Shown here piece after piece: positions 1,406-17,785 of a DNA stretch of 59,053 nucleotides. The translations under genes and the position numbers were made by a program. The notes beneath the pieces were generated by a model. That model worked only from the letters and a program-made list of their open reading frames with translations. It was not told the DNA's origin and made no database searches. Source of the DNA: an uncultured virus (IMG/VR IMGVR_UViG_3300025154_000055) (lineage: Duplodnaviria; Heunggongvirae; Uroviricota; Caudoviricetes); IMG/VR virus record IMGVR_UViG_3300025154_000055; one strand, written 5' to 3'. How positions within the stretch are numbered: position 1 is the stretch's first letter; every line of letters begins with the position of its first letter.

Positions 1406-1407
1406 AG

Positions 1408-1480: not shown

Positions 1481-1483
1481 ATG

Positions 1484-1558: not shown

Positions 1559-1648
1559 TCTTGATGCCAATCTTCGTCATGTGCCACGCGGGGGATTGAC
1601 CCTCGCCACGCTACTGAGACGTGTTAAGTCCCCTGTAAGGGAATCGTG

Positions 1649-1720
1649 TGCCGCCCGTGGCGCTTGAATCCACGTCTACCGATTTTCACCCGGTCGCTAA
1701 ACCATCTCAGCTAGGGCGGC
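1649..1720 (-). tRNA. tRNA-Phe(GAA)
   Basis: GCCGCCC/GGGCGGC; loop GT-GAA-AA. Confidence 0.85.
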
Positions 1721-1723
1721 GTT

Positions 1724-1796
1724 TAGGCGATGGCTGAGTTGAACAGCCTTCTGAGAGGTGTAGGCTCCCCGTGATAGACCCTTCTACTAATCGCCT
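1724..1796 (-). tRNA. tRNA-Val(TAC)
   Basis: AGGCGAT/ATCGCCT; loop CC-TAC-AC; TTCAACT. Confidence 0.8.
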
Positions 1797-1939
1797 GTTT
1801 GCTATGTATCGCGGATTCCGCCACGACACTAACGGGATAGCGTCCCGCACCATTTGTCTTCCGAAGACGCATCACGGAGTCGAACCGATTCCCGTCTTAC
1901 CAAACCTCGGTGAGCGAGACAGAATCGAACTGTCTTTCG

Positions 1940-2012
1940 TGGAACTACGGGAACTCGAATCCCGATTCCGATCTTGAGGGGATCGTTACCTGTCCAATTA
2001 GTAGATAGTTCC
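1940..2012 (-). tRNA. tRNA-Glu(CTC)
   Basis: GGAACTA/TAGTTCC; loop CC-CTC-AA; TTCGAGT. Confidence 0.9.
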
Positions 2013-2123
2013 ATTTACCCCTCTACGCTTCCAGTGACGAGATTGATCCCGGCACTGTTCTATGAAAGGGCGACAGTCTCCCGCATCTACCTGAAATCGC
2101 AGACTCATATGCGAATGCGATTG

Positions 2124-2204
2124 TGGGCCTGACTGGAGTTGAACCAGCACGGGTTTCCCCAAAAGTTCCTAAGACTTTCGCGGCTGCGATTACGCCACAG
2201 GCCC
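2124..2204 (-). tRNA. tRNA-Leu(TAG)
   Basis: GGGCCTG/CAGGCCC; loop CT-TAG-GA; long variable arm. Confidence 0.9.
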
Positions 2205-2208
2205 GTAG

Positions 2209-2281
2209 CTGCTCCCCCGCGACTTAAACGCGGATCGTCCGATTTAACAGATCGGCGCACGATCAATTGTGCTAGAGAGCA
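2209..2281 (-). tRNA. tRNA-Asn(GTT)
   Basis: TGCTCTC/GGGAGCA, G73; loop CT-GTT-AA; T-loop TTTAAGT. Confidence 0.88.
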
Positions 2282-2349
2282 ATATTGTCGTCCGGTACTC
2301 TCCCCGACCGGACACGGAGGGTCGTCTTGATGATGAACGACCAAGATAG

Positions 2350-2423
2350 TACCCCATGAGTGAGTTGAGCACTCTACCTCCGCATCCGAAGTGCGGCGCT
2401 CTAGTCGGGTGAGCTAATGGGGC
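2350..2423 (-). tRNA. tRNA-Arg(TCG)
   Basis: GCCCCAT/ATGGGGT; loop CT-TCG-GA; T-loop CTCAACT. Confidence 0.88.
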
Positions 2424-2429
2424 GCTACA

Positions 2430-2513
2430 GTCATTCGTTGTTCCCCAGTCTATGCTCGCCCCACCCCGGAAGTGAGTTTGAATACGAGTGCCGCCTCGAA
2501 CGGCCCGAATGAC
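2430..2513 (-). ncRNA. stem-closed structured RNA, unknown
   Basis: 8-bp terminal inverted repeat GTCATTCG/CGAATGAC filling the gap between two tRNA genes. Confidence 0.4.
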
Positions 2514-2517
2514 CTTG

Positions 2518-2663
2518 TGCCGATGGCGAGATTCGGACTCGCAACTATTGTCAACAACTCCTCGACTAGCAGCGTTGTCGTTGACGCCTCCCTTACACTT
2601 TCGTCTGGGGGAGTGACCTCCGTCTTAGTCGGACGGCGCTCTTCCAATTTGAGCTACATCGGC
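2518..2663 (-). tRNA. tRNA-like RNA with a ~70-nt structured insertion in the variable region (loop CG-ACT-AA)
   Basis: perfect acceptor GCCGATG/CATCGGC, D-, anticodon- and T-stems; insert folds into two hairpins. Confidence 0.7.
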
Positions 2664-2742
2664 GTATCTAGGCGGTGTACACTTCCATACTCTTTCAGGC
2701 TGTTGCCAGATTGACGGGCGTTAATCCGTCACTTCCGCCACG

Positions 2743-2815
2743 GGCAGGATATGGGACTCGAACCCATGAGCATCTGATTGGCAACCAGACCCGATAGCCA
2801 CTACGGGAATCCTGC
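2743..2815 (-). tRNA. tRNA-Gly(GCC)
   Basis: GCAGGAT/ATCCTGC; loop TT-GCC-AA; TTCGAGT. Confidence 0.9.
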
Positions 2816-2907
2816 GTTCTGCGGTTCTCCGTCTGCCGTCCACTCCCACCGCAAGTCTTGCACATCGGCAGATAGTATTGACCAGACCAACACCCTTAAA
2901 GAGACAG

Positions 2908-2983
2908 TGCAAGGTGGCGGAGGCGAGCCGTGTCCTTCTTCCCCTTATCAGAGGGATGTTTCGTACCCCGAAACTGACCCTGC
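2908..2983 (-). tRNA. tRNA-Ile(GAT), degenerate T-arm
   Basis: GCAGGGT/ACCTTGC; TCCCT-CT-GAT-AA-GGGGA; weak T-arm CGG-CTCGCCT-CCG. Confidence 0.6.
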
Positions 2984-3053
2984 AAATGCGCGGTGTCTCC
3001 CATGCGAAGTTGATCAGTCAACACAAGTTCAACCATACTGCCGCGCCAGTAAG

Positions 3054-3125
3054 CAGACCCTCCCGATTTCGAGTCGGGACATGCGTCATCCAAAGTGACG
3101 TGCGCTACCTTTGCGCTAAGGGTCT
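3054..3125 (-). tRNA. tRNA-Gln(TTG)
   Basis: AGACCCT/AGGGTCT; loop CT-TTG-GA; T-loop CTCGAAA. Confidence 0.88.
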
Positions 3126-3131
3126 ATAAAG

Positions 3132-3222
3132 TGACTGCTATCTGATATTCCAATCGGGCTATCTTTCTCAGCACGCCATCTTCGCGTATTCGGACGATTT
3201 TGCCTCAGACCTGAAGCAGTCA
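3132..3222 (-). ncRNA. stem-closed structured RNA, unknown
   Basis: TGACTGCT/AGCAGTCA terminal stem plus inner TCTGA/TCAGA stem, between tRNA-Pro and tRNA-Gln. Confidence 0.45.
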
Positions 3223-3229
3223 GCGTAAG

Positions 3230-3304
3230 TCAGCGAAGAGGGATTTGAACCCCCGATCCCAAAGTCCCAAACTTTGTGCGTTGGCCGGTCTACGCTATTC
3301 GCTG
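3230..3304 (-). tRNA. tRNA-Pro(TGG)
   Basis: CAGCGAA/TTCGCTG; loop TT-TGG-GA; TTCAAAT. Confidence 0.92.
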
Positions 3305-3386
3305 TTTTGGTGGACGTTTTATGACGGAATGCGCCCTCCTCCGACATACTTCACGAATGTTTTCACTCAGAAGATATGTGAGCCAG

Positions 3387-3459
3387 TACCCCCACTCGGA
3401 CTTAAACCGAGATGTACAGATTAAAAGTCTGTCCCGTTATCAATTACGGACATGGAGGC
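3387..3459 (-). tRNA. tRNA-Lys(TTT)
   Basis: GCCTCCA/TGGGGGT; loop CT-TTT-AA; T-loop TTTAAGT. Confidence 0.87.
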
Positions 3460-3462
3460 GTG

Positions 3463-3537
3463 TGCATCCACCCCGATTTGAACGGGGACTAACTCGGTAA
3501 GGGCGAGCCATGCTGTGCCGTTGAACATTATGGATGC
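3463..3537 (-). tRNA. tRNA-Lys(CTT)
   Basis: GCATCCA/TGGATGC; loop CC-CTT-AC; TTCAAAT. Confidence 0.85.
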
Positions 3538-3657
3538 GTTTCTCGGTCGCTCAGGTCACTAGATTTGCATAGTCACTAAGTTCAGGTGTGCGTTTAGTAT
3601 CGGTGTGCCGATATTTCTTAGCGCATAACTTTCATCGCCCTCAATGACGACTGATTG

Positions 3658-3742
3658 CTGTGATGTGCAGAGTTGAACTGCAAGGCCATGACGACCACGT
3701 ACTTTCGAGATACGTCGGATGTGCCGATAATCCAACATCACA
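3658..3742 (-). tRNA. tRNA-Ser(CGA)
   Basis: TGTGATG/CATCACA, G73; loop CT-CGA-AA; long variable arm. Confidence 0.82.
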
Positions 3743-3748
3743 AAAGAG

Positions 3749-3834
3749 CGGTGAATAGAGTAGTCGAAACTCTGACCCTGTAACGGGCGCGGTATTTCCA
3801 ATACCGTTGGCTAAACCGACAAGCCGTATTCACC
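3749..3834 (-). tRNA. tRNA-Ser(GGA)
   Basis: GGTGAAT/ATTCACC, G73; loop TT-GGA-AA; long variable arm. Confidence 0.87.
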
Positions 3835-3840
3835 AAGTTA

Positions 3841-3955
3841 TTAGGGATTGCGACCGCGAGTTCCTGGCCCTATCGCGTCCTGTTTGATTCATCGTTGGCG
3901 GCACATATAGCCTTATCAGCACCGTTACCTTCTTCTCCACCAGAGCAATCCCTAA
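3841..3955 (-). ncRNA. stem-closed structured RNA, unknown
   Basis: perfect 11-bp terminal inverted repeat TTAGGGATTGC/GCAATCCCTAA filling the gap between two tRNA-Ser genes. Confidence 0.6.
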
Positions 3956-3958
3956 AGG

Positions 3959-4044
3959 CGGAAGCGGTGCGAGTTAAACGCACAGTCCCTTGCGGAACGC
4001 ACGGTTTCAAATCGTGCTAGAACTCTCGATATTCCAACGCTTCC
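3959..4044 (-). tRNA. tRNA-Ser(TGA)
   Basis: GGAAGCG/CGCTTCC, G73; loop TT-TGA-AA; long variable arm. Confidence 0.88.
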
Positions 4045-4145
4045 ATAGCATCTCGTTATCGCACGCCAGACGCCTAGCGCTTGCTTAAGGCGCGAAGAGC
4101 GACGGACTTTACCGTTGGATAGTTCTGCGGCGAACGTCCAGTGTA

Positions 4146-4218
4146 CACTCTCAGTCGGACTCGAACCGGCGTGAAATCGCTGAAAACGATCCATCCTAAG
4201 CCGCTAGATGATGAGAGT
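4146..4218 (-). tRNA. tRNA-Glu(TTC)
   Basis: ACTCTCA/TGAGAGT; loop TT-TTC-AG; TTCGAGT. Confidence 0.9.
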
Positions 4219-4271
4219 ATGGAGCAGGGCTGGCGTGGTCTTCGCCACGGAAGTTCCAGACACCTGCGTAT

Positions 4272-4348
4272 TGGGGTAGATGGAGGGACGTGCGCCCTCT
4301 ATAAACGGTTCCACAGACCGTCGCGGCACTATATTCGCCTCATCCACC
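4272..4348 (-). tRNA. tRNA-His(GTG)
   Basis: encoded G-1:C73 and CCA; loop CT-GTG-GA; T-loop CGCACGT. Confidence 0.88.
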
Positions 4349-4355
4349 ATGTTCT

Positions 4356-4530
4356 GCTAAATATCTGTAATCGAGAGTGGAACGGTCAAGGTTATCAGTT
4401 ATTCACGCTCTGGGAGAACTCCACGGGACACCTTTCGGTGTTTCTGCTTTCGCTTCGTCAGCCGAACCAGATGAGCGTCCAGATGTTTCCTGTCTCCGTT
4501 CCCGGCAACCCACGGTCACAGATATTTAAC
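4356..4530 (-). ncRNA. 175-nt rod with a central bubble, 6S RNA-like
   Basis: long closing stem (TAAATATCTGT..), GGAACGG/CCGTTCC stem, ~17/19-nt central bubble containing ACCTTGA, apical ACGCT/AGCGT stem. Confidence 0.5.
4405..4478 (-). ncRNA. type I hammerhead ribozyme core
   Basis: CGG-CUGACGA-A-GC-GAAA-GC-A-GAAAC-ACC-GAAA-GGU-GUC-CCG; predicted cleavage after GUC, between 4427 and 4426. Confidence 0.75.
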
Positions 4531-4533
4531 TTG

Positions 4534-4617
4534 CGGAGATGAGAATGCTCGAACTTCTAGTCCCTTTCGGAACGCCGCGTTAGCAGTGCGGTCGGAACAT
4601 CAATTTCCAACATCTCC
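4534..4617 (-). tRNA. tRNA-Ser(GCT)
   Basis: GGAGATG/CATCTCC, G73; loop CT-GCT-AA; long variable arm. Confidence 0.9.
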
Positions 4618-4841
4618 AGTTCGACTGATTGAGCGCGGGAATCATAGTACCTCTACCCTCTTTTAATGGTCTGCCGACCACTATCAGTCCATTCCCAAAT
4701 TATGTCATCCCCTTAAAGGAATCCTAATCATCACGTCCTGGGCAATCCGGCACGAGTCTGAGTCTGCGGTATCTAAGGTGTTACGTGCGTAGTCCCGCTG
4801 TATTCAGCGGCATACTTCTTGGGTTACAGATTGTACCCATG

Positions 4842-4915
4842 TGCGCCTCCCAGAACTCGAATCTGGACTCCTCCGTCCCGCGAACGGATGTGTTATCCAA
4901 TTACACCAGAGACGC
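4842..4915 (-). tRNA. tRNA-Arg(GCG)
   Basis: GCGTCTC/GAGGCGC; loop TC-GCG-GG; TTCGAGT. Confidence 0.85.
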
Positions 4916-5023
4916 ATTTGCAACCTTTGGTTGCCGTCGCCCATTGCATCACGCGATTTCATGAATTATGGTCTCGCGTTTTCAGTCATCTATCGATGGG
5001 GCGATAACCCCGATGACCTTGCA

Positions 5024-5096
5024 TGTCGGGTCTGGGAGTCGAACCCAGTTGAACGGAGCGTATGAGACTCCTGCCTTGCCGTTTGGCCTACCCGAT
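5024..5096 (-). tRNA. tRNA-Met(CAT), 1:72 mismatch (initiator-like)
   Basis: ATCGGGT/ACCCGAC; loop CT-CAT-AC; TTCGACT. Confidence 0.82.
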
Positions 5097-5101
5097 ACTG
5101 A

Positions 5102-5128
5102 ATCTCTATAGCGATTACTTGACATAAT
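5102..5128. repeat. 27-bp dispersed motif copy
   Basis: ATCTCTATAGCGATTACTTGACATAAT. Confidence 0.8.
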
Positions 5129-5132
5129 ACAA

Positions 5133-5277
5133 AATGTGTTGGGGCTGTGACTTCGACACGTCAAAACCTGCTGATCACTTGCCTCTTTTGCACTCTAGTC
5201 CGCTTTTACGTTGCGGCCCGCTAGTTCGTTTCCGATGAATAGCTGTATCCCTAGTCGCTCATGCAAGGCAACACATT
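5133..5277 (-). ncRNA. stem-closed multibranch RNA, unknown
   Basis: AATGTGTTG/CAACACATT terminal stem; nested GCCT/AGGC, TGCA/TGCA, CTAG/CTAG and CCGC/GCGG stems. Confidence 0.55.
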
Positions 5278-5290
5278 CTATTTCTGATAA

Positions 5291-5401
5291 AGATAGTGTC
5301 GGCGGAAGGCTTAGTATCACGCTGCTCCGCTTCCTGACCCGTGACGGTCTCCGAACTGTCCGCTATAAGGGTGCGACCCATATTCCAGACACGCACTATC
5401 T
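5291..5401 (-). ncRNA. 111-nt SRP(4.5S)-like RNA
   Basis: AGATAGTG/CACTATCT ends; rod ending in GUCACG-GG-UCAGG-aagcgg-AGCAG-CGUGAU, resembling the SRP helix 8 symmetric loop. Confidence 0.4.
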
Positions 5402-5403
5402 AG

Positions 5404-5476
5404 CAAGAGCGGTGGGACTTGCGCCCACTAAAACTGATTTTGGAGATCAGCCCCTATCTTCTTTGGGTTCGCCCTT
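5404..5476 (-). tRNA. tRNA-Trp(CCA)
   Basis: AAGGGCG/CGCTCTT, G73; loop CT-CCA-AA; T-loop CGCAAGT. Confidence 0.87.
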
Positions 5477-5484
5477 ATAGTTCT

Positions 5485-5528
5485 ATCTTACCCCAAGATG
5501 TTGAGTTAAGCAATGTTACTTAGGTACT
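5485..5528 (-). promoter_or_regulatory. internal sigma70-type promoter with upstream 15-bp box
   Basis: AGTACCTAAGTAACA-TTGCTT-17bp-TAAGAT just upstream of tRNA-Trp. Confidence 0.55.
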
Positions 5529-5530
5529 TG

Positions 5531-5604
5531 TGGAACAGATGGGATTTGCGCCCATAGAACCCTAATTTTGAATTAGAGATGTCTGCTAGTTGCATCACTG
5601 TTCC
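5531..5604 (-). tRNA. tRNA-Leu(CAA), short variable loop
   Basis: GGAACAG/CTGTTCC; loop TT-CAA-AA; 5-nt variable loop; T-loop CGCAAAT. Confidence 0.82.
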
Positions 5605-5607
5605 GTG

Positions 5608-5679
5608 TGGATCGTGGGGGAGTCGCGCCCCTCAAGACAAGAATATTGCAAGTATTCTCCGCTACCTCTATCCCGACCC
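5608..5679 (-). tRNA. tRNA-Ala(TGC), reduced D-arm
   Basis: G3:U70 pair and A73; loop CT-TGC-AA; no clear D-stem; T-loop CGCGACT. Confidence 0.7.
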
Positions 5680-5801
5680 GTATTGCTGGGAGCGACACGC
5701 CTGCCGCCCCCGTTGCTCTTGCAAGGTTCGCTTTCGCGTCCCAAGACCTCGCTACCACGCATGGTGGTTGAGACTTAAAACCTCAAGATAGACGACAATT
5801 T

Positions 5802-6137
5802 CTAGTTCAGCCGCTCAATCGTCTTACCGTTGTCGTTCAGTAAGTACACGCTCAAGTTAGACCCGATAATTACGCTTTTATCACCACGACTTGCGGTAAT
5901 AATAGCGCTTGTCGGGAATCCAACATTTCGCGCCACATTCAAGAATGTCTCATCGTATTGATCTAGCGGGATATTCGGATAACCGCTCACGGTATGATAC
6001 TCAACATTTTCGAGTCCATCCACGAATCGCCATCCCCCCTTCCATACTTCTTTAGTGTAGTTTCCGTCTCCATTCCCGTCCGATTCTGCGAGTTCGGGTA
6101 ACTGCCTGCCGTTCTCTGTTTCCATCTTGATAATCAT
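5802..6137 (-). CDS. hypothetical phage protein
   Basis: likely start MIIKMETENG with AGGAG RBS; the upstream extension in the ORF track overlaps tRNAs. Confidence 0.7.
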   Translation of the reverse strand: MIIKMETENGRQLPELAESDGNGDGNYTKEVWKGGWRFVDGLENVEYHTVSGYPNIPLDQYDETFLNVARNVGFPTSAIITASRGDKSVIIGSNLSVYLLNDNGKTIERLN

Positions 6138-6185
6138 CTGTCTTTCTCCTGTTCTGTCTCGCTGTCTGTCTATCTTGAGATTCAG

Positions 6186-6268
6186 TGGGCAATCAGTGAG
6201 TCGAACACTGCGTACTAAGTACACGGGTCTACAATCCGCTCCAACGATCCGATAGTTGGCTATTGCCC
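6186..6268 (-). tRNA. tRNA-Tyr(GTA)
   Basis: GGGCAAT/ATTGCCC; loop TT-GTA-GA; variable arm GTAC-TTA-GTAC. Confidence 0.9.
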
Positions 6269-6271
6269 AAG

Positions 6272-6346
6272 AGCTGATGGTCGAAGTCGAATCGACAATT
6301 ATGTTCCCGTACAGGGGGAGCGCCATACCAATTAGGCGACATCAGC
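6272..6346 (-). tRNA. tRNA-Thr(TGT)
   Basis: GCTGATG/CATCAGC; loop CC-TGT-AC; TTCGACT. Confidence 0.87.
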
Positions 6347-7002
6347 TAGAAACTCTTACCAGCTCTGTACCTTTCTTTTCTCGCCACTCTTCCATTTCCT
6401 CTGTTTTTACCTTTATATGTGTCAGTTTGCGCGTCACAATTTGGGCATATCAATCTAAGGTTACTTAGTCTATTATCGTATGGGTTTCCATCAATGTGAT
6501 CTACTATCAAGGGAATTTCTAAACCATTCCAAACCGATCCGTCGCATATTTCGCAAACATGCTTTCTTGTGGCGAGAATGGTTCTCCTGACGGACGGAGG
6601 TTCTATTTTTTCTCCGCCATTCATTTTTGATATATTTTCCAATATCCTGTTTTCAGATATGCACTTCATAGAACAGAACCTTTTGTAGTACGGGTTTTTT
6701 GTTGGAAGACCACACTGTTCACATATCGTATCTGGTTTTTTGTTTCTCGTCCTTCGTTTGTTATTGTAAGACGCAAAGCACGACGATCCGCAAAACACAT
6801 TTTTACCGAACGCGATCCCGCCACAGTTTTTGCATGGTTTATCGTGACGCTTGTGCCAATTTATATGATTAGTCATCGACACTCTAGCAATTGGCTTTCC
6901 GCACGAATCGCATTTTATCTTATCGGTTTTTCCACAATAAGATAAATGTCCCGCTACACTTCTCTTGGAATTAAATTCCCTGCCGCATTTTGGACAGTTC
7001 AT
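6346..7002 (-). CDS. HNH homing endonuclease with N-terminal zinc fingers
   Basis: multiple CxxC pairs; C-terminal VDHIDGNPYDNRLSNLRLICPNC. Confidence 0.9.
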   Translation of the reverse strand: MNCPKCGREFNSKRSVAGHLSYCGKTDKIKCDSCGKPIARVSMTNHINWHKRHDKPCKNCGGIAFGKNVFCGSSCFASYNNKRRTRNKKPDTICEQCGLPTKNPYYKRFCSMKCISENRILENISKMNGGEKIEPPSVRRTILATRKHVCEICDGSVWNGLEIPLIVDHIDGNPYDNRLSNLRLICPNCDAQTDTYKGKNRGNGRVARKERYRAGKSF

Positions 7003-7026
7003 ATCTCGACTCCAGTTTTGAATATA

Positions 7027-7055
7027 ATTGTACCACTGATTTCGGATATTGACAA
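7027..7055 (-). promoter_or_regulatory. sigma70-type promoter for the HNH gene
   Basis: TTGTCA-17bp-TACAAT with extended -10 TG. Confidence 0.6.
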
Positions 7056-7078
7056 CACTAAGTAGCGGAATCGGGATA

Positions 7079-7152
7079 AGAGACCGGTGGGATTTGAACC
7101 CATCATATCTAACTTGGAAGGATAGCGCCCTACCGGATTGGACGACGGTCTC
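7079..7152 (-). tRNA. tRNA-Gly(TCC)
   Basis: GAGACCG/CGGTCTC, U73; loop CT-TCC-AA. Confidence 0.9.
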
Positions 7153-7156
7153 GTTG

Positions 7157-7228
7157 ATCCAGAGACCCGAATTGAACGGGCGCTATTACTGTACGAAAGT
7201 AACGTCCTGCCGACTAGACGACTCTGGA
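7157..7228 (-). tRNA. tRNA-Thr(CGT)
   Basis: TCCAGAG/CTCTGGA; loop TT-CGT-AC. Confidence 0.87.
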
Positions 7229-7317
7229 ATGTTTTCAATTGTTAAGGAATGGCTGTTTCGCTATGCCAGTACAGCCATCGAAACTTCTGTAGGTCACGAG
7301 ATATAATCAGGCGACAG

Positions 7318-7392
7318 TGCCGACAGCAGAACTCGAATCTGCAAGCCCACGGGTTTAGGCCGTAGAGGTATGCCACTTCCCATCATGTCGGC
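7318..7392 (-). tRNA. tRNA-Leu(TAA), short variable loop
   Basis: GCCGACA/TGTCGGC; loop CC-TAA-AC; 5-nt variable loop. Confidence 0.82.
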
Positions 7393-7400
7393 GTTTCTGA

Positions 7401-7544
7401 ATAACTGTCACCGAGCGGAGAACTATACGGTCGTTCTCACACCCGCTGGTCAGGCGCTTTCTTATTGCTACCCTACATCGCAACCAACGATGATACTCTC
7501 GCAATGTGCTACGGGTTACACGTAGCCCGATCGGTGACAGTTAT
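7401..7544 (-). ncRNA. stem-closed multibranch RNA, unknown
   Basis: perfect 14-bp terminal stem ATAACTGTCACCGA/TCGGTGACAGTTAT plus three internal hairpins. Confidence 0.65.
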
Positions 7545-7554
7545 CCAAAATCAG

Positions 7555-7627
7555 AGCCAACAGGGGCGCTCGAATCCCCAACCTTATCTTTACCAAAGAT
7601 ACGTTCATCCATTTGAACTTTGTCGGC
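7555..7627 (-). tRNA. tRNA-Thr(GGT)
   Basis: GCCGACA/TGTTGGC; loop TT-GGT-AA. Confidence 0.9.
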
Positions 7628-7632
7628 AAAGG

Positions 7633-7704
7633 CGCGGATGATGGGTACTGGCCCCACTACTTATTCCTCGACAGGGAATCGCCTCGCTTTCCGGCTCCAC
7701 CCGC
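7633..7704 (-). tRNA. tRNA-Asp(GTC)
   Basis: GCGGGTG/CATCCGC, G73; loop CT-GTC-GA; T-loop GCCAGTA. Confidence 0.8.
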
Positions 7705-7713
7705 AGATACTAA

Positions 7714-7865
7714 AAACGCTTGTCGTTCCTTGCGGTTCGCCCAAGCGCCAATCCAATCCTTCAAGAGCGAAACCGCTACATCTTGTCCCCTGCGTCATGG
7801 CGCGTGACGAGATTCCCCAATTCGGGGGTATTCGCCAAAAACCAATTCTGATACGATAAGCGTTT
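7714..7865 (-). ncRNA. stem-closed multibranch RNA, unknown
   Basis: 13-bp terminal stem AAACGCTTATCGT/ACGACAAGCGTTT (one mismatch); starts just after the promoter at 7876-7904. Confidence 0.6.
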
Positions 7866-7875
7866 CATGTGAACA

Positions 7876-7904
7876 ATCATAAAGGATATTGCGACCGTTG
7901 TCAA
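7876..7904 (-). promoter_or_regulatory. strong sigma70-type promoter
   Basis: TTGACA-17bp-TATGAT. Confidence 0.75.
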
Positions 7905-7919
7905 TAGTCAATTTCAGTA

Positions 7920-8061
7920 AGATTGCGCGACTCCCGCGTTACCTCAGATTAGCCACATCGGGACGGTATCAGCGAGTGATTCTGAGAACTCCATCCACCG
8001 TTCGTCACGCCAAGTATCCAGTCCGCTTTTCGCAGTGGGAGGACATGCCGCCGCGCAATCT
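7920..8061 (-). ncRNA. stem-closed structured RNA, unknown
   Basis: 10-bp terminal stem AGATTGCGCG/CGCGCAATCT immediately 3' of tmRNA. Confidence 0.55.
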
Positions 8062-8063
8062 AG

Positions 8064-8374
8064 TGGAAATGTGGGGAGTCGAACCCCAGTCTCTCAGATT
8101 CCGGTTACATCATTCTTACGAGCGTGTCAGACTTTGAGAAAGTCTACGAAACAGGGATACCCTGACTTCGGTATCACTCCACCATCCGTCTTACTACTAG
8201 GCGACGGAAGCCTGTACTGCATTGCCGAATAACGCCTCGGCTAACGACGCCTGCGCGAAGGCAGGGTGTGTCAACTTGCTAGAGTTAGCATTTGATATTT
8301 GCGTTCATTAGGATTCAGAACGCCTACCGCTCGTGACGTTTTCCTTCCACTGAAATCGATTCCGGTTCATTCCC
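8064..8374 (-). ncRNA. ssrA: tmRNA
   Basis: acceptor GGGAATG/CATTTCC with G3:U70 and A73; GAC-T-arm; internal tag ORF 8289-8197 ANSSKLTHPAFAQASLAEALFGNAVQASVA followed by three stops. Confidence 0.93.
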
Positions 8375-8449
8375 ATGTACGCCGTTCTACGCTCTCGATT
8401 CGACTATGAACGGAAAACAGCCCCTATGTTTCGCTGGCATTAAGCCTTG

Positions 8450-8523
8450 TACCCCACGGAGAACTCGAATCTCCAACCTGCAAATTAGAAATTTGTCGCT
8501 CTGTCCAGTTGAGCTAGTGAGGC
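8450..8523 (-). tRNA. tRNA-Arg(TCT)
   Basis: GCCTCAC/GTGGGGT; loop TT-TCT-AA; TTCGAGT. Confidence 0.93.
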
Positions 8524-11351: not shown

Positions 11352-12038
11352 ATGAGTAAAAGCACAGAACTGAAGGATTATTGGAGCGACCCGGAACCGG
11401 AAGACCCGAAAACCACTCGGAAAGTAGCCTATGTCGCCAAAGATATAGACGACCGTAGCGGCGAGCAAAAGATTAACGAGAGAATAAAGAGTTACGAGAA
11501 CGACCTTGATGCCTCTAGTCTTACTGAGTCCGACCGGAGCCAGATTAAGAACTTGGCAAGATTAGAGGTCGGCATAGAGGCGTTTACAGAGAAGCTGAGT
11601 AACATTGGGGAATCTGACTCTAAGACCGCCAAATCACTCAGCGACACGCTATCGACCCTCATGGCCCAACACCGTCAGATTGCCTCTGCGCTGGGCATTG
11701 ACCGAAAGTCCCGATCCTCTCGCGGGGAGTCGGAATACGAGGAATACCTGCCACGCCTTCACAAGCAAGCATATAATTTTATGGCAGAGAAATCCATCGT
11801 TATCATGTGTCCCGTTTGTATTAACAACAAGGCACACACGAAGATTAACGAGGGGTTTATCGTTTTTCACTTCAGGGAAGATGTGGATTGGGAATGGCGC
11901 TCGGCGTGTCCGTCGTGCAAGCAGCAATTTGTGATTAACTACGGAAACTGGCAGAACTTCACCAGAGCGGCAATAAATAAGATTGGAAAACTAGATGGCA
12001 AGACCGAAGACGACTCAACCGAAGAATTCGACGCTTGA
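11352..12038 (+). CDS. probable terminase small subunit
   Basis: helical region ending ALGIDRKSR, C-terminal CxxC pairs, overlaps the start of TerL. Confidence 0.6.
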   Translation: MSKSTELKDYWSDPEPEDPKTTRKVAYVAKDIDDRSGEQKINERIKSYENDLDASSLTESDRSQIKNLARLEVGIEAFTEKLSNIGESDSKTAKSLSDTLSTLMAQHRQIASALGIDRKSRSSRGESEYEEYLPRLHKQAYNFMAEKSIVIMCPVCINNKAHTKINEGFIVFHFREDVDWEWRSACPSCKQQFVINYGNWQNFTRAAINKIGKLDGKTEDDSTEEFDA

Positions 12039-13785
12039 TACCACTATAGAAGAAATAGAAGACGTATCCTCGTCCAAAAACCCGATTGGGCGCTCCATGC
12101 TAGAGAAGGACGGCGAGTTCTCTCTTGGAATGATTCTGTGCGACCAGATTCTCTTTTCGCTATTCTACCAACAGCGTGATCTTTCTCTTGGGCTTAGTTT
12201 TGAACAGAAATTAATGTTCGCAGATGAGTCTAAGCGCGTCCTTTTATGTACTTCACGTAGCGTTGCCAAGACAGTCGGTATCGTTGGACGCATTTCCCGC
12301 GATGCCGTGACGTATCTTCCAGACCCAAGATCGAGAGACGACGAAATTCTAACCGTAACTCCGACTTCTGGGCATATGAGCCAATTAGCAGACCGCGTGT
12401 TCTCTAAGTTGAAAGAGAATATCTTGTTCAGTTCTCTTATCAAAACATGGCACAGAAGTTCAGAGTCTCAAAAAATCGCAACAAACAACGGGTTGACCAT
12501 TCATTTCAGAATCGAAGGGTCTATCGATGATCGGAATATGACTGGCCCGCACCCTCATAAAATCTATTGCGACGAGATGGCCTTCGGGAATTTTGCGTGT
12601 CACCGTTCTCGTGCGGGTGGGGCAAAACCAACCTGCCAATGGTTGTATGCGGGAGTTCCGAATGGCGTCCGAGATACACCATTCTATCAATTAGACCAGA
12701 CTCACGACGGAGACTCATGGAGTCGTCATCGGGCGTCAATGATCACCGCGAATCCATTATATACGAGTTCTCCCGGATACGCGAAGGAGATGGAAGACCT
12801 CTTCGGAGGAGTATTCTCGCAAGACTATCATACTCAGGTTCAAGGAGAATGGGGCAGTGAGGCGATTTCGTCCTTTAATGCGGGGACTATCTCGTTCAAC
12901 AAGACAGTGGGACAACCCAATGGGTACAAATACTACATTGCGAGAGCAGCATCAGGAGATGTTGAGAAAGCGATCAACACGAGCAAGTTGTACGAACTTC
13001 TCAGAATCCCTAGCGTCAATCCACTTAGGGCTGTAATTGGGTGGGACTACGGTGAGTCTCCTGACCCCACCACGTTCCTACTTGCCGTCCAATACGCAGA
13101 TAAGACACCGTGGCAGACTTACGCGAGAATATCCCTTTACGGCGTTCCATCTCCTCGCCAATTAGAAGTCCTTCAACACCTTTGGGAAAACACCCTTAAT
13201 CGAAAGTGCGTCATGCTGTCTATGGACAATAAGGTTCAGTATCACTACATGATGGAGGATAAATACAAGGCGCTATTTGAGGGCAAAATTAAGATGACCC
13301 AGTTCAATAGCACGGTCGAGATTGATATGGTCACGGGCAAAATGGTCACGGAAACCAATAAAGACGACCAGATCGTGCTAGAACACCGAAAAGATGGCAA
13401 GATCATTAAGGACTGGCGCAAGTATCTTCTCACCGAACAACTCAAGCGGTACATGCTGAGTCATATATACGGGGATACGGAACACACTAGACTTGAGTTG
13501 GGGTACGACCCTGATATGGAGAACGAACTATTGGGAACCGTAGAGCGCCGAACCATGTCCCACGTGGTTTACGATACGCCGAAAGTAAAGTCGAACAAAA
13601 ACTCACCAAAACCAGATCAAATTGTGGACGCTTTACGCGCATTAACGGATGCAATACTCGTAGTAGATTCTGAAAAACCAGATGAGGTTCCACAAGATAT
13701 TTCGGCCATGCTCGCCAGTTTTGGTTGGACGGGCAGCAACACGTCACTCAGTAAGGGATGGCGTCAACCGTGGCAGAACAGGTAG
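11995..13785 (+). CDS. terL: terminase large subunit
   Basis: Q-motif SFEQ, Walker A TSRSVAKT, Walker B IYCDEMA, GVPNG, nuclease IGWDYG and DQIVDALR. Confidence 0.88.
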   Translation: MARPKTTQPKNSTLDTTIEEIEDVSSSKNPIGRSMLEKDGEFSLGMILCDQILFSLFYQQRDLSLGLSFEQKLMFADESKRVLLCTSRSVAKTVGIVGRISRDAVTYLPDPRSRDDEILTVTPTSGHMSQLADRVFSKLKENILFSSLIKTWHRSSESQKIATNNGLTIHFRIEGSIDDRNMTGPHPHKIYCDEMAFGNFACHRSRAGGAKPTCQWLYAGVPNGVRDTPFYQLDQTHDGDSWSRHRASMITANPLYTSSPGYAKEMEDLFGGVFSQDYHTQVQGEWGSEAISSFNAGTISFNKTVGQPNGYKYYIARAASGDVEKAINTSKLYELLRIPSVNPLRAVIGWDYGESPDPTTFLLAVQYADKTPWQTYARISLYGVPSPRQLEVLQHLWENTLNRKCVMLSMDNKVQYHYMMEDKYKALFEGKIKMTQFNSTVEIDMVTGKMVTETNKDDQIVLEHRKDGKIIKDWRKYLLTEQLKRYMLSHIYGDTEHTRLELGYDPDMENELLGTVERRTMSHVVYDTPKVKSNKNSPKPDQIVDALRALTDAILVVDSEKPDEVPQDISAMLASFGWTGSNTSLSKGWRQPWQNR

Positions 13786-13801
13786 TGCGTGGTATAATAG
13801 C

Positions 13802-13910
13802 ACCCAACGGCCTCGGCGTCAGCCGATTGCCGACTTAGAGTTTTGACTGTCATCAGCCTGAGCGCCCGACCCCGCGCTACTTGGCAATTCGGCTGCACGC
13901 CGTGTTGGGC
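13802..13910 (-). repeat. attC site 5
   Basis: GCCCAAC-ACGGC-GTGCAGCCG...CGGCTGAC-GCCGAGGCC-GTTGGGT. Confidence 0.85.
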
Positions 13911-14052
13911 GGCTGCTTGCAATAAAAGAGGAACAACGGCCCTGACACATCTGACACGGCCCGATGCGTTTTACGAAGCCGCCCGATGCTGCGAACCTGA
14001 AATGCTGAGACTTCCTGTGACCACAATTCTGACAGACCGAATTACCGTGCAT
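13819..14052 (-). CDS. cassette ORF, small Cys/His-rich protein
   Basis: CQNCGH..H..CQMC..C; stop lies inside attC5. Confidence 0.65.
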   Translation of the reverse strand: MHGNSVCQNCGHRKSQHFRFAASGGFVKRIGPCQMCQGRCSSFIASSRPTRRAAELPSSAGSGAQADDSQNSKSAIG

Positions 14053-14061
14053 AGAGTTGCC

Positions 14062-14171
14062 GTCTAACGGCCCCGGCGTCAGCCGCCGCGCACCGTGCTA
14101 GATTTTCGGCTGGTCGATTTGGCGCTCTTGCGCTTGGCTACTGGCGCGGTCGGCTGCACGCCGTGTTGGGC
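14062..14171 (-). repeat. attC site 4
   Basis: GCCCAAC-ACGGC-GTGCAGCCG...CGGCTGAC-GCCGGGGCC-GTTAGAC. Confidence 0.87.
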
Positions 14172-14330
14172 GGCGTCCAATTTCTCAGCGTCGCGCATGG
14201 CACGATCCCAGTCAAACCAGTTAATCCCGCCACGCTTAACGATGTACTGCGCACATTCAAAGCGAGTCGTCTTTCCGCCATTGATAACACGGATAGTCCA
14301 ACCGCCCAACCCTTCATCTGTTTTGATCAT
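14079..14330 (-). CDS. cassette ORF, hypothetical
   Basis: GGAGG RBS, MIKTDEG; reads into attC4. Confidence 0.65.
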   Translation of the reverse strand: MIKTDEGLGGWTIRVINGGKTTRFECAQYIVKRGGINWFDWDRAMRDAEKLDAAQHGVQPTAPVAKRKSAKSTSRKSSTVRGG

Positions 14331-14348
14331 TTGTCCTCCAAGAAAGCC

Positions 14349-14452
14349 GCCCAACGGCCCCGGCGTCAGCCGCCGCGACCTGCTACATTTTCAATGTCGG
14401 TTGAATCGCTGGCCGACGCATGATCGGCGGTCGGCTGCACGCCGTGTTGGGC
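14349..14452 (-). repeat. attC site 3
   Basis: GCCCAAC-ACGGC-GTGCAGCCG...CGGCTGAC-GCCGGGGCC-GTTGGGC. Confidence 0.87.
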
Positions 14453-14635
14453 GGCGGCCTGTTCAACAACGACTTTCAGCGTTGCGTCATATAGCGCTGG
14501 CGCGCACGCTGCGCACGCGAAAATCCAGCCAACCATATTGCCATTTGCGCGATGTGGTATCAGGCATATGTTTTCTGTCTTAGCGCACGATATGCAATGA
14601 GCGATGAATGGCCGTTCAATTTTTCTGATCTTCAT
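14366..14635 (-). CDS. cassette ORF, zinc-ribbon hypothetical
   Basis: GGAGG RBS, MKIRKIE, CISC/CAAC; reads into attC3. Confidence 0.65.
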   Translation of the reverse strand: MKIRKIERPFIAHCISCAKTENICLIPHRANGNMVGWIFACAACAPALYDATLKVVVEQAAAQHGVQPTADHASASDSTDIENVAGRGG

Positions 14636-14659
14636 GATTTCCTCCGGGCGAAAGATGCC

Positions 14660-14749
14660 GCCCAACGATTCGCGTAAGCGGCGGGCGCTCACGCACTGGT
14701 GGATTTACGCGCCCTCGGTGCGCCCGTCCGCTTGACGCGAGGGTTGGGC
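14660..14749 (-). repeat. attC site 2
   Basis: GCCCAAC-CCTCG-CGTCAAGCGG...CCGCTTACG-CGAATC-GTTGGGC. Confidence 0.88.
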
Positions 14750-15051
14750 CGCGCTGGTGGAAAAGGAAGTTCCCAGTTTTGCTCAATAATGGCCCAGTCA
14801 ATTTCTTCTGGTTTTAGTTCGCTGTTTCCGGCCTGCAAAACTAAAACAAACTGGTCGCGCATTGGCTTGAAGCCCAAAACTTGTTTCAGTCCATGCTCTT
14901 TGACTCCAATTTGAAACGGGGGAAATTCCATAAAAAACTGGGTAACGACGCAATTAGCGCAAAGCCCTTCGCTTGCACGTCTAAACGGACGTGCTTCGCT
15001 ATTTTCTGATTTTCCAGGCCTTGCTGGCCTGTGGCAACGCTGGCATTCCAT
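14689..15051 (-). CDS. cassette ORF, zinc-ribbon hypothetical
   Basis: AGGAG RBS, CQRC/CANC; reads into attC2. Confidence 0.7.
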   Translation of the reverse strand: MECQRCHRPARPGKSENSEARPFRRASEGLCANCVVTQFFMEFPPFQIGVKEHGLKQVLGFKPMRDQFVLVLQAGNSELKPEEIDWAIIEQNWELPFPPARPNPRVKRTGAPRARKSTSA

Positions 15052-15075
15052 AGAGACTCCTATTTACGAGAAGCG

Positions 15076-15181
15076 GCCCAACGACCTCGGCTTCACCCGC
15101 CGCCACCGACCCAACTGCCGATGGTCAACCGTAACGCTCAACTCCGGCATGATCGGCGGTCGGGTGCAATCCGTGTTGGGC
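15076..15181 (-). repeat. attC site 1
   Basis: GCCCAAC-ACGGA-TTGCACCCG...CGGGTGAA-GCCGAGGTC-GTTGGGC. Confidence 0.85.
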
Positions 15182-15193: not shown

Positions 15194-15228
15194 GGGGTGA
15201 CTGGTGGAGAGAGATCACCAGTCACCCC
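15194..15228 (-). terminator. 13-bp perfect hairpin after ssb
   Basis: GGGGTGACTGGTG/CACCAGTCACCCC; no U tract. Confidence 0.5.
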
Positions 15229-15239: not shown

Positions 15240-15605
15240 CTAGAACTCTGGTTCTGAATCCTCGGACTCTTCTTGCTTCTTTTCGCCCTTATTGTCTCCG
15301 GTGAACTCAAAATCCGTCACGACAATCTCGATAGATACGCCAGTACCACCATCGCGTTTCTCGTAAGTCACGACTTTCTGGCGACCAGATAGAGCGAACG
15401 TCGTTCCGCCCTTAATGAACTTGGACAGCGATTCGGCCTGTTTTCCGAAGAGTACCGCCTGAAAGTTGTTGAACTCCGGTTTCTCTTTTGTGCCTACATT
15501 CTTCGAGAACCGTAACTTCAGAACAGCCGTACCGCTTGGAGCATAGACCATACTAACGTGTTCGTCGTCCTTGATTTTCCCTGTTACGTGAGCGATAACT
15601 GACAT
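15240..15605 (-). CDS. ssb: single-stranded DNA-binding protein
   Basis: OB-fold pattern (FGKQAESL..KG..SGR..YEKRDG) and acidic C-terminus ending EPEF. Confidence 0.9.
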   Translation of the reverse strand: MSVIAHVTGKIKDDEHVSMVYAPSGTAVLKLRFSKNVGTKEKPEFNNFQAVLFGKQAESLSKFIKGGTTFALSGRQKVVTYEKRDGGTGVSIEIVVTDFEFTGDNKGEKKQEESEDSEPEF

Positions 15606-15622: not shown

Positions 15623-17785
15623 TTAGATTTTCTTTTCAACGTCGTCTTTGAACAAAAACGTCACAACCGCGCTACTTTGAGTCTTGAAACCCGTCACGGG
15701 AACGATATATTCCGCCTCTGCCGTGTTGTGATATTTCTTCCAGTGTCCACCGAGCGCAATGGCGTATCGTCTCGCGTTAATGTCTGCATCGATATGGCGC
15801 TTCTTGTCTTTAAGGATGGTGATCCGGTCGTTCAACCACTGAATTGCCGCGCCCGTTGACTTGGGCATTGCGTCCATATCCGATTGACCCAACATCATCA
15901 TATCGCCCGTGAAGTTCATCTTCTTGTTACCCTTGACCATCTCAGCGAAGTCCTTCATAGTTACGGGACTCGTCTTGGAAACCTTAATCTCGAAGGTGCG
16001 AATCTTCATCACGTCTGTAGCGTCTTCCTCAACCATCGGAGGCGAATACGAACCGTCAGACTTGATGCCACACTCTGATAGGAACGCCTCCTGTTCGGGA
16101 GTCATCGTCACAGGGCGCTTGAACTCTTTATTTGGGTCGAGTTCGTCCAACTTCGCCCTGAGAACCTTTAAGGTGTTGCCGACGATGGCAGACTCAACGG
16201 ACTTCTTCGCCAGATCGTCCCAATTACATGCCGTCTTGCCGCGAACACGATTACAGGCAGGGACGGCGGATAAGTCTAAGACATGAATAACAGAACCGTC
16301 GTCCTTTTTGATGGATTCTGCGATAGCACCGATTCTGTCCAACTCCCGGAAAGTGGCGTACCCAACGCTTACGGGTAGTCTGGTTACATTCGGCAGGGCG
16401 TTCGCAATCACGTTGTACGTTCGGAAGATACTGGAGTTGAACACCTTCGGAAGCCCGACCGATTCTCGCGTGACTCCGTTCTCCTCATCGGGCAATTCAA
16501 CCGTACCCGGAATGTTGACACCCACACTAATATTGAGTTCTTTCGAGTTCCCGACAAGACCAGAAGAGATAGGAACAGACACATTCTCGTCTGCCTTGAA
16601 CTCTGGATACCCGTCCTTGACTTTACTGACACGACCGATACGCTTGTACTTGAACTCCTTGTGACGCGGGTATAGACGCGCTTCGGGGTCGTTCTGCAAT
16701 AGCGTCAGTAGGTCAATCAAGTCGAAGGCATCCTCTTTTGGCGCACATCCCTTCTTCTGACCTTTCAAGAACCTTTTCGTAATATCCGTAGCGGCATCCT
16801 GAATCATGGACTCCACTTCACCGAACTCTTTGTTCGTGATAGCAGAACCCAACTTCTCGACAATCGCCACGTCCCCTACATCACCTAGAATGGACAAAGC
16901 GCCATCTACGTCCCCACTTTGCAGAGACAGCAGTGCAGTTGCGTAGACGGGTTGATAGGGGTCAACCATCTTGGACGCGACCATAGACGCAACGGGTTTC
17001 CCGTCTGATTTGCTCGTCACGAAATAGACGCTCGTGCCAGTCGGGGCAGTCACCACACCGTTTTCCACGGAGTAGATGACCACGCGCCCGTTTTCGATAG
17101 CGAAGGCGGCGTCAGAACCCGCAGGGAGCGTAATCGTTGTGCGCTTCTTGCCCTGCTTGACGACAATCTTGCCCAATGCCTTGCCAAAGTCCCGAATCTC
17201 GTCAGCGTGTTGCAATGTAGCACCCAACGCTTGCGCCATCTCGGTCATAAGCTGACGGTTATATCCATCCGAATATCCCACTAAGAGACCCGATGAAATC
17301 TGTCCCTTAATGTCCTTAATGGCGTTAAAGATTGCCTTCTTCTCGCGGTCGTAGGACGGCACAACAGGGTATCCATCTGTCAGGAAAACCAATTCAACGG
17401 TATCCACAAGGGGCGCAACATCCGCAATGACCGTGGGGACGTTCGCCAGAATCTCGCTAAAGCACGTTGTATTTCGGGAACGCGCATTGCTCTGGATAAT
17501 CTTGGCAACGGCATCATAATCCCTTTGGTCAACTACACGAGTGCCCTTGACGAACCACCGATAATCCCCAACACCGCTGAAATACCCCACCGTCATGAAG
17601 TCGCCCGATGGGACTTCTTTCAGGTGCGTACACATATCGTCTGCTACTTGCTGAGTATAGTAGCCCATACTGCCGCTCTGGTCAACGACCCAAATGTGAT
17701 GCTTTCGTTGCGAGACCTGAGTCTTCTCGCTCTCTGCGGGATGAATCACCCCTACGAATTTGTTCCCAATCGGCCAATAACTCAT
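15623..17785 (-). CDS. von Willebrand factor A domain protein
   Basis: MIDAS DQSGSM and FLTDG. Confidence 0.82.
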   Translation of the reverse strand: MSYWPIGNKFVGVIHPAESEKTQVSQRKHHIWVVDQSGSMGYYTQQVADDMCTHLKEVPSGDFMTVGYFSGVGDYRWFVKGTRVVDQRDYDAVAKIIQSNARSRNTTCFSEILANVPTVIADVAPLVDTVELVFLTDGYPVVPSYDREKKAIFNAIKDIKGQISSGLLVGYSDGYNRQLMTEMAQALGATLQHADEIRDFGKALGKIVVKQGKKRTTITLPAGSDAAFAIENGRVVIYSVENGVVTAPTGTSVYFVTSKSDGKPVASMVASKMVDPYQPVYATALLSLQSGDVDGALSILGDVGDVAIVEKLGSAITNKEFGEVESMIQDAATDITKRFLKGQKKGCAPKEDAFDLIDLLTLLQNDPEARLYPRHKEFKYKRIGRVSKVKDGYPEFKADENVSVPISSGLVGNSKELNISVGVNIPGTVELPDEENGVTRESVGLPKVFNSSIFRTYNVIANALPNVTRLPVSVGYATFRELDRIGAIAESIKKDDGSVIHVLDLSAVPACNRVRGKTACNWDDLAKKSVESAIVGNTLKVLRAKLDELDPNKEFKRPVTMTPEQEAFLSECGIKSDGSYSPPMVEEDATDVMKIRTFEIKVSKTSPVTMKDFAEMVKGNKKMNFTGDMMMLGQSDMDAMPKSTGAAIQWLNDRITILKDKKRHIDADINARRYAIALGGHWKKYHNTAEAEYIVPVTGFKTQSSAVVTFLFKDDVEKKI

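Follow-up and report, generated by a model that had tools for sequence, protein, structure and literature searches.

An integron cassette array headed by an attC site in a tailed-phage genome, and an apparent cassette-free allele of the same locus

Cassette arrays built from integron attC sites are a known kind of element in phage genomes, since Qi et al. (2023; PMC9892861) found, across 10,705 phage genomes, 17 clusters of attC sites lacking an integrase (CALINs) as well as 3 complete integrons, and five of six phage attC sites recombined with the integrase IntI1. The array described here lies at positions 13802-15181 of a stretch of 59,053 nucleotides (hereafter the window), which is part of a 121,053-base contig of an uncultured tailed virus (IMG/VR IMGVR_UViG_3300025154_000055) and extends 13.8 kb to the left and 43.9 kb to the right of the array. 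It consists of five attC sites, S1 to S5, and four gene cassettes between the genes for the large terminase (terL) and the single-strand binding protein (ssb). Like the published phage CALINs, for example that of the virulent Tetrasphaera phage TJE1 (3 attC sites and 4 open reading frames (ORFs)), it combines co-oriented attC sites with single ORFs, has no adjacent integrase gene (intI) and is found beside a terminator-like hairpin. However, the main text of that paper describes neither strains with and without cassettes nor a resident self-complementary attC site, and it presents no case of the Chloroflexota type, the terms 'Chloroflex' and 'groundwater' giving 0 matches in its supplement. 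The route proposed there is illegitimate or homologous capture, and its sites were assayed with IntI1, whereas those of the window are known from sequence alone.

Bacterial CALINs and chromosomal integrons (Cury et al., bioRxiv 10.1101/030866), including Chloroflexota arrays, share the attC architecture and the attC sequence family of the window. Compared to chromosomal integrons, the array is located in a phage, it has no head formed by an attI site and a cassette promoter (Pc), its cassettes are about half the size, and its ORFs cross the attC sites. Insertion at chance genomic sites (attG; bioRxiv 10.1101/2022.09.11.507474) and insertion into attC sites (PMC8191803) resemble our reading of the window in that IntI is reported to act in trans and away from attI. 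Insertion at attG leaves n sites for n cassettes and a start that is not an attC site, as in the viral contigs G010-G013 described below, whereas the window has n+1 sites. Insertion into attC targets in the laboratory needed overexpression of the integrase; in the window, it would have taken place naturally and in a phage. Lastly, phages with a complete integron are represented by Vibrio and Shewanella prophages (PMC9892861) and by the viral contig G014, which was found in the present study. G014 resembles the window in its attC family, in cassettes of 205-800 bp and in a shared 21-nt leader, but it carries intI and an attI-like site between head genes, and the window has neither.

The five attC sites of the window are all located on the minus strand: S1 (13802-13910, 109 nt), S2 (14062-14171, 110 nt), S3 (14349-14452, 104 nt), S4 (14660-14749, 90 nt) and S5 (15076-15181, 106 nt), the latter forming the head of the array. 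A first-pass annotation, made from the letters of the window without database searches, had described five palindromes of 90-110 bp with the attC layout. This description was borne out by folding, which gave z-scores of -5.2, -3.5, -3.6, -4.7 and -3.1 for S1 to S5, with 0, 0, 0, 0 and 1 of 200 shuffles each folding as well as the respective site. It was also borne out by a covariance model that was home-built and is not the one of IntegronFinder. For this purpose, attC-like loci were gathered from public sequences with a pattern derived from the window (20 genome loci, and 11 viral loci on 10 contigs), and the model was trained on 21 attC sites, all from outside the window. In the training alignment the structure was 91% paired, and compensatory change was seen at 14 of 21 pairs. 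Against the 59,053 bases the model returned exactly S1 to S5, all on the minus strand, with scores of 53.9, 49.1, 56.9, 64.9 and 46.6 bits, respectively (E-values of 2e-13 to 4e-9), and the sole further match was a weak echo of S4 on the opposite strand. It should be noted that the model cannot count as independent of the window in origin, because the loci were found via the window motif and 3 of the 21 sites belong to the same sequence family.

As all five matches are on the minus strand, this strand is the top strand of the sites and the plus strand is the recombinogenic bottom strand. Each site has the R'' (RYYYAAC) and R' (GTTRRRY) ends, falls within the published attC size range of 57-142 nt (PMC2727003), and carries two unpaired bases on the R''-L'' arm together with an unpaired central spacer. 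The extra L'' base on the top strand is a G in S1-S3 and S5, and a C in S4. The 5-nt spacer between R'' and L'' that had been annotated for the sites is present in S4 only, where it is canonical; the other four have 4 nt (a one-base gap in the model alignment), a variant that is also present in the genomes of the probable hosts. S5 has one extra L'' mismatch that is absent from the host copies. S2 and S3 have an exact 30-nt repeat in common (14146-14175 and 14427-14456). Rfam matched nothing at the array.

When the cassette boundaries were set by the G|TT crossover, four cassettes on the minus strand resulted: cassette 1 (13808-14067, 260 bp), cassette 2 (14068-14354, 287 bp), cassette 3 (14355-14665, 311 bp) and cassette 4 (14666-15081, 416 bp). 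Thus, single co-oriented ORFs do alternate with attC sites between ssb and terL, as first annotated. In known cassettes, the start pairs with the R'' of its own attC site over 9-11 nt (PMC2727003). The complementarity noticed at first sight between each cassette start and its downstream R'' was confirmed, with 10 of 10 positions in cassettes 2, 3 and 4, and 8 of 10 plus two wobbles in cassette 1. Since the R boxes of S1-S3 are alike, this pairing discriminates only for cassette 4 and for the outermost pair of boxes.

Four cassettes need four attC sites, yet five are present, and neither an attI-like G|TT nor a cassette start complementary to the R'' of S5 was found between ssb and S5, the nearest such start being at 17228, inside a conserved 720-aa gene. 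The array is therefore headed by a resident attC site and not by attI, a point that the first-pass annotation had missed, as it had the earlier publication of arrays of this kind in phages. The left half of this resident site would be the R' letters that follow the crossover to the left of S1 (13799-13807, minus strand). They are complementary to the R'' of S5 at 9 of 10 positions, including 3 of 3 beyond the heptamer, and the two outer boxes are each other's best partner, their matches with the other R boxes being 6-8 of 10 (6-7 of 10 for the left letters with the R'' of S1-S4). The stem formed has 10 bp, as in the true cassettes. Given this pairing, removal of the cassettes at G|TT would leave a single self-complementary attC site, as in a circular cassette. 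The corresponding outer pair scores 4-7 of 10 in all 7 other arrays examined, some of which are incomplete or cut by contig ends. Moreover, the four viral arrays or single cassettes with a readable start (G010-G013), as well as G014, begin at a G|TT that is not part of an attC site and that matches the first R''.

No IntI- or XerC-like sequence was detected in the 59-kb window (best tblastn E-value of 0.14), in agreement with the annotated absence of intI. Within this window the array is a CALIN, a class defined by at least 2 attC sites without intI nearby and represented here by 5 sites. It is not a complete integron within the same 59 kb, as there is no adjacent intI and the head is S5 instead of attI/Pc.

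The array stretch is contained in 11 sequencing runs, 10 of which are groundwater metagenomes, and the window was compared with the contigs of four runs (X1, X3, X5 and X7). In X1, the whole stretch is found on one 18-kb contig with a flat depth of 10.1 and no differences. In X3, contigs tile the stretch at 12-22x, and in X5, which belongs to a second study, a 694-nt contig runs from cassette 4 through S5 into the end of ssb, again without differences. In view of the X1 contig and the X5 join, it is unlikely that the array is a misassembled piece of a host chromosome, one of the outcomes that would have spoken against the first-pass annotation. Contigs break at the 30-nt repeat of S2 and S3 in X3 and not in X1; the breaks could reflect recombinants or the behaviour of the assembler, and depth does not decide between the two.

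A further X3 contig with a depth of 6.7 carries a diverged 3' end of terL and a joint from 13810 to 15085 that skips 1274 bases. This is the sum of the four cassettes (416+311+287+260), in register with the predicted crossover, which supports both the cassette nature of the inserts and the IntI-type crossover at G|TT proposed initially. An arm composed only of 13566-13631, 13758-13810 and 15085-15158 reproduces three raised depth bins (20.31, 14.85 and 26.73 versus 20.3, 14.9 and 26.7), no arm is required for the other seven bins tested, and on either side the arm returns to shared sequence. All four cassettes are therefore missing from the arm. The protein that fits its terL end is P0053, which is the same as the TerL of the window up to residue 536 and has 16 differences thereafter, and terL letters of the P0053 type are also present in X5 and X7. 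Judged from the joint and the depth, the diverged allele apparently keeps the left flank and the body of S5 and is devoid of all four cassettes. That the X3 joint is a direct join is likely, because the pieces meet in register with a 7-nt overlap. As the cassette-free allele has a diverged terL end, the resident site would be older than the split of the two alleles. The gap in array coverage in X5 and X7 (depth 2-6) was not counted as evidence. With 16 of the last 60 residues differing (13596-13785), the two terL alleles also represent a mosaic 3'-end swap that is linked to the cassette locus.

No close relative with this locus was found among viral contigs (4 distant relatives), GenBank phages or 401 Anaerolineae-class genomes, and metagenome contigs likewise yielded no close relative and 25 distant ones, the best at 50%. 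The TerL proteins of the distant relatives are about 50% identical to that of the window. Their terL and ssb genes converge across 31 nt in L002 (ssb by tblastn, E-value of 2e-10) and across 48 nt in L001 (ssb by eye), in both cases with one short hairpin, and in L003, L009 and L027 ssb is 0.7-2.2 kb away behind small genes. The covariance model detected attC in 0 of 26 loci with a TerL relative (29 loci less three duplicates) and in 0 of 4 whole viral records. The absence of attC from the terL/ssb loci of the distant relatives is most simply explained by the order no attC, one attC, cassettes. One relative, the complete 124-kb genome G006, has no attC and encodes a XerC-like tyrosine recombinase (L072:1102-2067), which was rejected as a candidate IntI with 30 bits against a cut-off of 265.

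We also examined where else this attC family occurs. S5 shares 93% identity with attC sites of two Anaerolineae-class genomes and 88% with that of a third, and S5-type matches were found in 9 of 401 Anaerolineae-class genomes, invariably to attC parts and never to a cassette body. The 20 genome loci of the pattern search are labelled Chloroflexota (9), Actinomycetota (5), Acidobacteriota (3), Planctomycetota (2) and Gemmatimonadales (1). In view of these mixed phyla, an Anaerolineae bacterium is the probable host, though not a certain one. Of five Chloroflexota genomes that carry this attC family and were tested, four have IntI above the cut-off, and at the host loci intI is divergent from an attI site ending in ATAAT..G|TT. 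The attI sites of Chloroflexota (L061-L067) have a TATAAT-like -10 box 5-6 bases before the crossover, so that the cassette promoter would overlap attI.

The 10 viral contigs from the pattern search comprised five strong model matches, one weak match (17 bits) and four contigs (L053-L056) without attC at the match, as judged by a simple scan only. Exact or degenerate attC patterns matched 0 viral contigs in one search, and in another 2 that had already been found. Five viral contigs besides the window carry the same attC family: G012 with 6 matches, G014 with 7, G011 and G013 with 1 each, and G010 with 2 when the filters were off. Their cassettes measure 205-814 bp and include DNA methyltransferase genes. 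Among the five, IntI is encoded by G014 only (436 bits), where terminase, portal and head genes surround a complete intI, an attI-like site and cassettes. The intI gene of G014 (L097:11623-12600) lies between head genes in the same direction as the cassettes, the attI-like site follows right after its stop codon, and a second array with four sites is located at the contig start (L059, L091). In G010 (L092:5210) the array starts at an attI-like motif near-identical to that of G014, and there is no intI in the 40-kb fragment. G012 (L083:243-2087) has two methyltransferase cassettes, and the cassette start after the last attC site repeats that after the first, which suggests a duplicated or reordered cassette, or a contig ending in a cassette circle.

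As IntI is encoded both in host genomes and in a phage, the integrase acting on the array could be that of the host or of another phage, or it could be encoded in the rest of the contig. The first-pass annotation had suggested that the phage acquires and shuffles genes with a host integrase. Only the presence or absence of all four cassettes was seen, and no reordering; the host as the source agrees with IntI in 4 of the 5 Chloroflexota genomes, but G014 shows that a phage can bring its own.

The ORFs of the four cassettes are all on the top strand and enter or cross their own attC site, three of them ending at the TGA of L' and one in the loop. We do not claim this read-through as a selected trait, because 14 of 31 foreign sites are also open to the L' TGA. 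The ORF of cassette 1 (14052-13819, 77 aa, two CxxC pairs) reads through S1. It has no ribosome-binding motif within the cassette and is absent from the protein collection and the Atlas, and it is therefore the least certain gene of the array. In cassette 2 (ORF 14330-14079, 83 aa) the last 30 residues are encoded by S2; its homolog P0065 lacks the attC tail, and P0066 is an unrelated body with the same tail. It is this cassette that has the 21-nt leader in common with a cassette of G014. Cassette 3 (ORF 14635-14366, 89 aa) encodes a member of a four-cysteine small-protein family with an attC-encoded tail. The family has 76 matches at E-values of at most 0.001, and C14, C17, H28, C41 and C44 are invariant in 36 aligned sequences. 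Only 2 of the 76 matches share the tail, on unrelated bodies, a third one flagged by pattern looks spurious, and attC was found near a gene of this family in 0 of 3 viral loci. Tail-less homologs may come from cassettes that stop at R''. For the protein of cassette 4 (ORF 15051-14689, 120 aa, two CxxC pairs) no homolog was found beyond its own cluster. None of the four proteins belongs to a Pfam, PHROG, NCBIfam or PADLOC (defence-system) family, and in the Atlas cassette proteins fall into unnamed clusters only. The two CxxC pairs (four cysteines) in the proteins of cassettes 1, 3 and 4 would be suited to zinc binding. The cassette genes resemble phage genes, in that the cassette-3 family is attC-free in three viral contigs and attC tails are found on unrelated genes. 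Our best guess is that the products are small accessory proteins for host interaction or regulation, expressed at the end of the ssb operon.

With regard to the flanks, terL (11995-13785, plus strand) encodes a protein of 596 aa without a match in Pfam, PHROG, NCBIfam or a PDB sequence search. Its structural model (pLDDT 83) was matched by Foldseek to the large terminases of D6E, T4 and HK97 (best E-value of 7e-16). The ssb gene (15240-15605, minus strand; PF00436, E-value of 1e-7; phrog_44, E-value of 4e-12) is the last ordinary gene before the array. Together with the TerL fold, a major head protein (phrog_2522), a tail protein (phrog_1887) and a tape measure protein (PF10145) are the tailed-phage genes of the window. 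Just past the ssb stop codon, a 13-bp hairpin (15194-15228, z-score of -6.7) without a U tract probably represents the ancestral terminator between the convergent genes; it was not called by the terminator scan. Directly adjoining the resident site on the other side is a predicted sigma-70-like promoter motif with an extended -10 box (13770-13798, plus strand, 10 of 12 consensus matches), which points into the array, antisense to the cassettes. It is the only TGnTATAAT in the window, and the promoter scan found 4 sites compared to 1.3 +/- 1.2 in shuffles. In the empty allele this motif could direct a short RNA ending at the 15194-15228 hairpin.

Elsewhere in the window, the 720-aa gene directly upstream of ssb (15623-17785) encodes a protein of PHROG 2426, a family without an assigned function, in which a vWA-like motif was noticed by eye near the N-terminus, and diverged copies of it are present in the same samples. 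Positions 1008-8523 contain 22 tRNA genes and a tmRNA gene interleaved with HNH genes, the tmRNA tag peptide being unusually long (31 residues, ARAGORN). Between the putative portal and capsid genes, a block at 30403-43789 holds glycosyltransferase, acyl-carrier, fatty-acid-synthesis-like and sugar-modifying genes, as judged by eye from the ORF list. There is a hint in the GC skew that the bottom strand serves as template for the leading strand, but coding bias explains most of this skew.

Altogether, we consider it somewhat probable that a resident attC site of host type serves this phage as a landing site for cassettes, with IntI acting in trans. The resident site, consisting of the body of S5 and the left flank, would be derived from the host and would occupy the gap that separates terL from ssb, two convergent genes. 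The integrase would be supplied in trans by the host, by a co-infecting phage or by the rest of this phage's genome, and circular cassettes would enter by attC x attC exchange at G|TT between folded bottom (plus) strands, a type of insertion reported to be experimentally possible (PMC8191803). Each insertion would add one gene and one attC site, leading to five sites and four cassettes. The phages associated with Chloroflexota might share a pool of very small genes of phage type, from which the cassettes are drawn. Being co-directional with the ssb operon, the cassettes could be expressed by read-through.

Several observations weigh against this view. With the endogenous integrase of Vibrio cholerae, insertion into attC sites was below detection and needed overexpression (PMC8191803), and the arrival of a single self-complementary attC site is left without explanation. 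The hairpin at 15194-15228 may block read-through. S5 is the weakest of the five sites, and this weakness, together with the L'' mismatch that the host copies lack, argues against strong upkeep. The pairing of the outer boxes is suggestive only: R boxes are alike in this attC family, and a 9/10 match arises by chance in 167 of 2500 foreign pairs (6.7%), and in 4 of 50 and 5 of 50 pairs for these two boxes, i.e. at about 7-10%. The variant X3 contig is known by its joint only, and the letters between 13810 and 15085 are not given, while the other joint of the same arm (13631 to 13758), which bears the same mark, does hold replaced letters. Furthermore, the reported position of the joint lies 3 bases inside the predicted crossover and beside a 7-nt microhomology, so that homologous deletion would fit too. 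Lastly, only two states, with 0 and 4 cassettes, were seen in the compared runs, and no intermediates, circles or single-cassette changes.

Alternatively, part of an existing array, from a host integron or from another phage, could have come into the gap between terL and ssb by a single illegitimate or homologous event that truncated the cassettes at both ends, with the cassette-free allele arising by later excision, either by IntI between S5 and S1 or through the 7-nt microhomology. We regard this as possible rather than likely. It is the route proposed for published phage CALINs (PMC9892861), and the identity of S5 to host attC, the chance level of the outer match and the microhomology beside the joint all fit it. 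On the other hand, it needs both breakpoints to lie within about 10-25 nt of an R box in addition to a chance 9/10 outer match, and the cassette-free allele is diverged across the locus and thus not a recent derivative. In addition, the cassette bodies match 0 of the 401 Anaerolineae-class genomes (the cassette 3 profile also 0 of 401), and the cassettes measure 260-416 bp compared to the 637-998 bp between sites in the host locus L040.

It is unlikely that IntI founded the array by inserting a cassette that ended in S5 at a chance G|TT (attG) next to terL, with later deletion of the gene and start of this cassette and the addition of further cassettes behind it. IntI is reported to insert at many genomic attG sites (bioRxiv 10.1101/2022.09.11.507474), G011 and G013 are single cassettes at non-attC G|TT sites, and the left flank fits GTTRRRY. 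However, no start complementary to the R'' of S5 is left between ssb and S5, and the pairing of the outer boxes would have no reason.

Very unlikely, although a circularised cassette does have a self-complementary attC site, is the idea that the entire 121-kb phage forms one giant cassette. Its attP would then be the resident attC, host IntI would integrate the genome at attI, and co-excision would have picked up the cassettes; the promoter motif at 13770-13798 would switch on the host intI, cassettes would be swapped, and small phage genes, such as those of the cassette-3 family, would be in the process of being made into cassettes. The site is indeed placed between convergent genes so that integration breaks no gene, the promoter motif would point outward to a divergent host intI, and a Vibrio prophage bounded by two attC sites has been described (PMC9892861). 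Yet a TerL relative was found in 0 of the 401 Anaerolineae-class genomes, in a search without a positive control, and the 22 tRNAs, the tmRNA and a sliding-clamp gene suggest, from general knowledge, a lytic phage. Moreover, the cassettes are small and phage-like instead of host-like, the distant relatives have no attC and one of them has its own XerC-like recombinase, and the S5 stem contains a mismatch. Finally, that a host array was spliced into the phage contig during assembly is hardly credible, even though attC repeats break the X3 contigs and X1 and X3 may be the window's own source data, because of the X1 contig, the X3 tiling and the X5 join described above, and because the cassette proteins are present on 10-11 contigs, like the flanking proteins (6-13).

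Returning to the resident attC as a landing site, the apparently new features are the attC-headed array, the pairing outer boxes, the apparent alleles with zero and four cassettes, the attC-free distant relatives and the phage-like cassette pool. The literature covered, which lay mostly outside subscription journals, contains no report of phage strains that differ by whole cassettes at a resident attC site, nor of Chloroflexota phage arrays. Of these, the zero-versus-four alleles, the layout headed by attC and the pool of phage-like cassettes all rest on the X3 joint and a modest pairing statistic. The published phage attC arrays are static snapshots that are thought to be captured host fragments, whereas here two alleles apparently differ at the IntI crossover. 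If this is true, the array would serve the phage as an active slot for accessory genes, one that operates with neither attI nor an integrase close by. Chloroflexota phages would then offer matched copies of the same genes in cassette and non-cassette form, and thereby a handle on how cassettes arise, and they would provide a path by which genes could move in both directions between phages and chromosomal integrons in groundwater.

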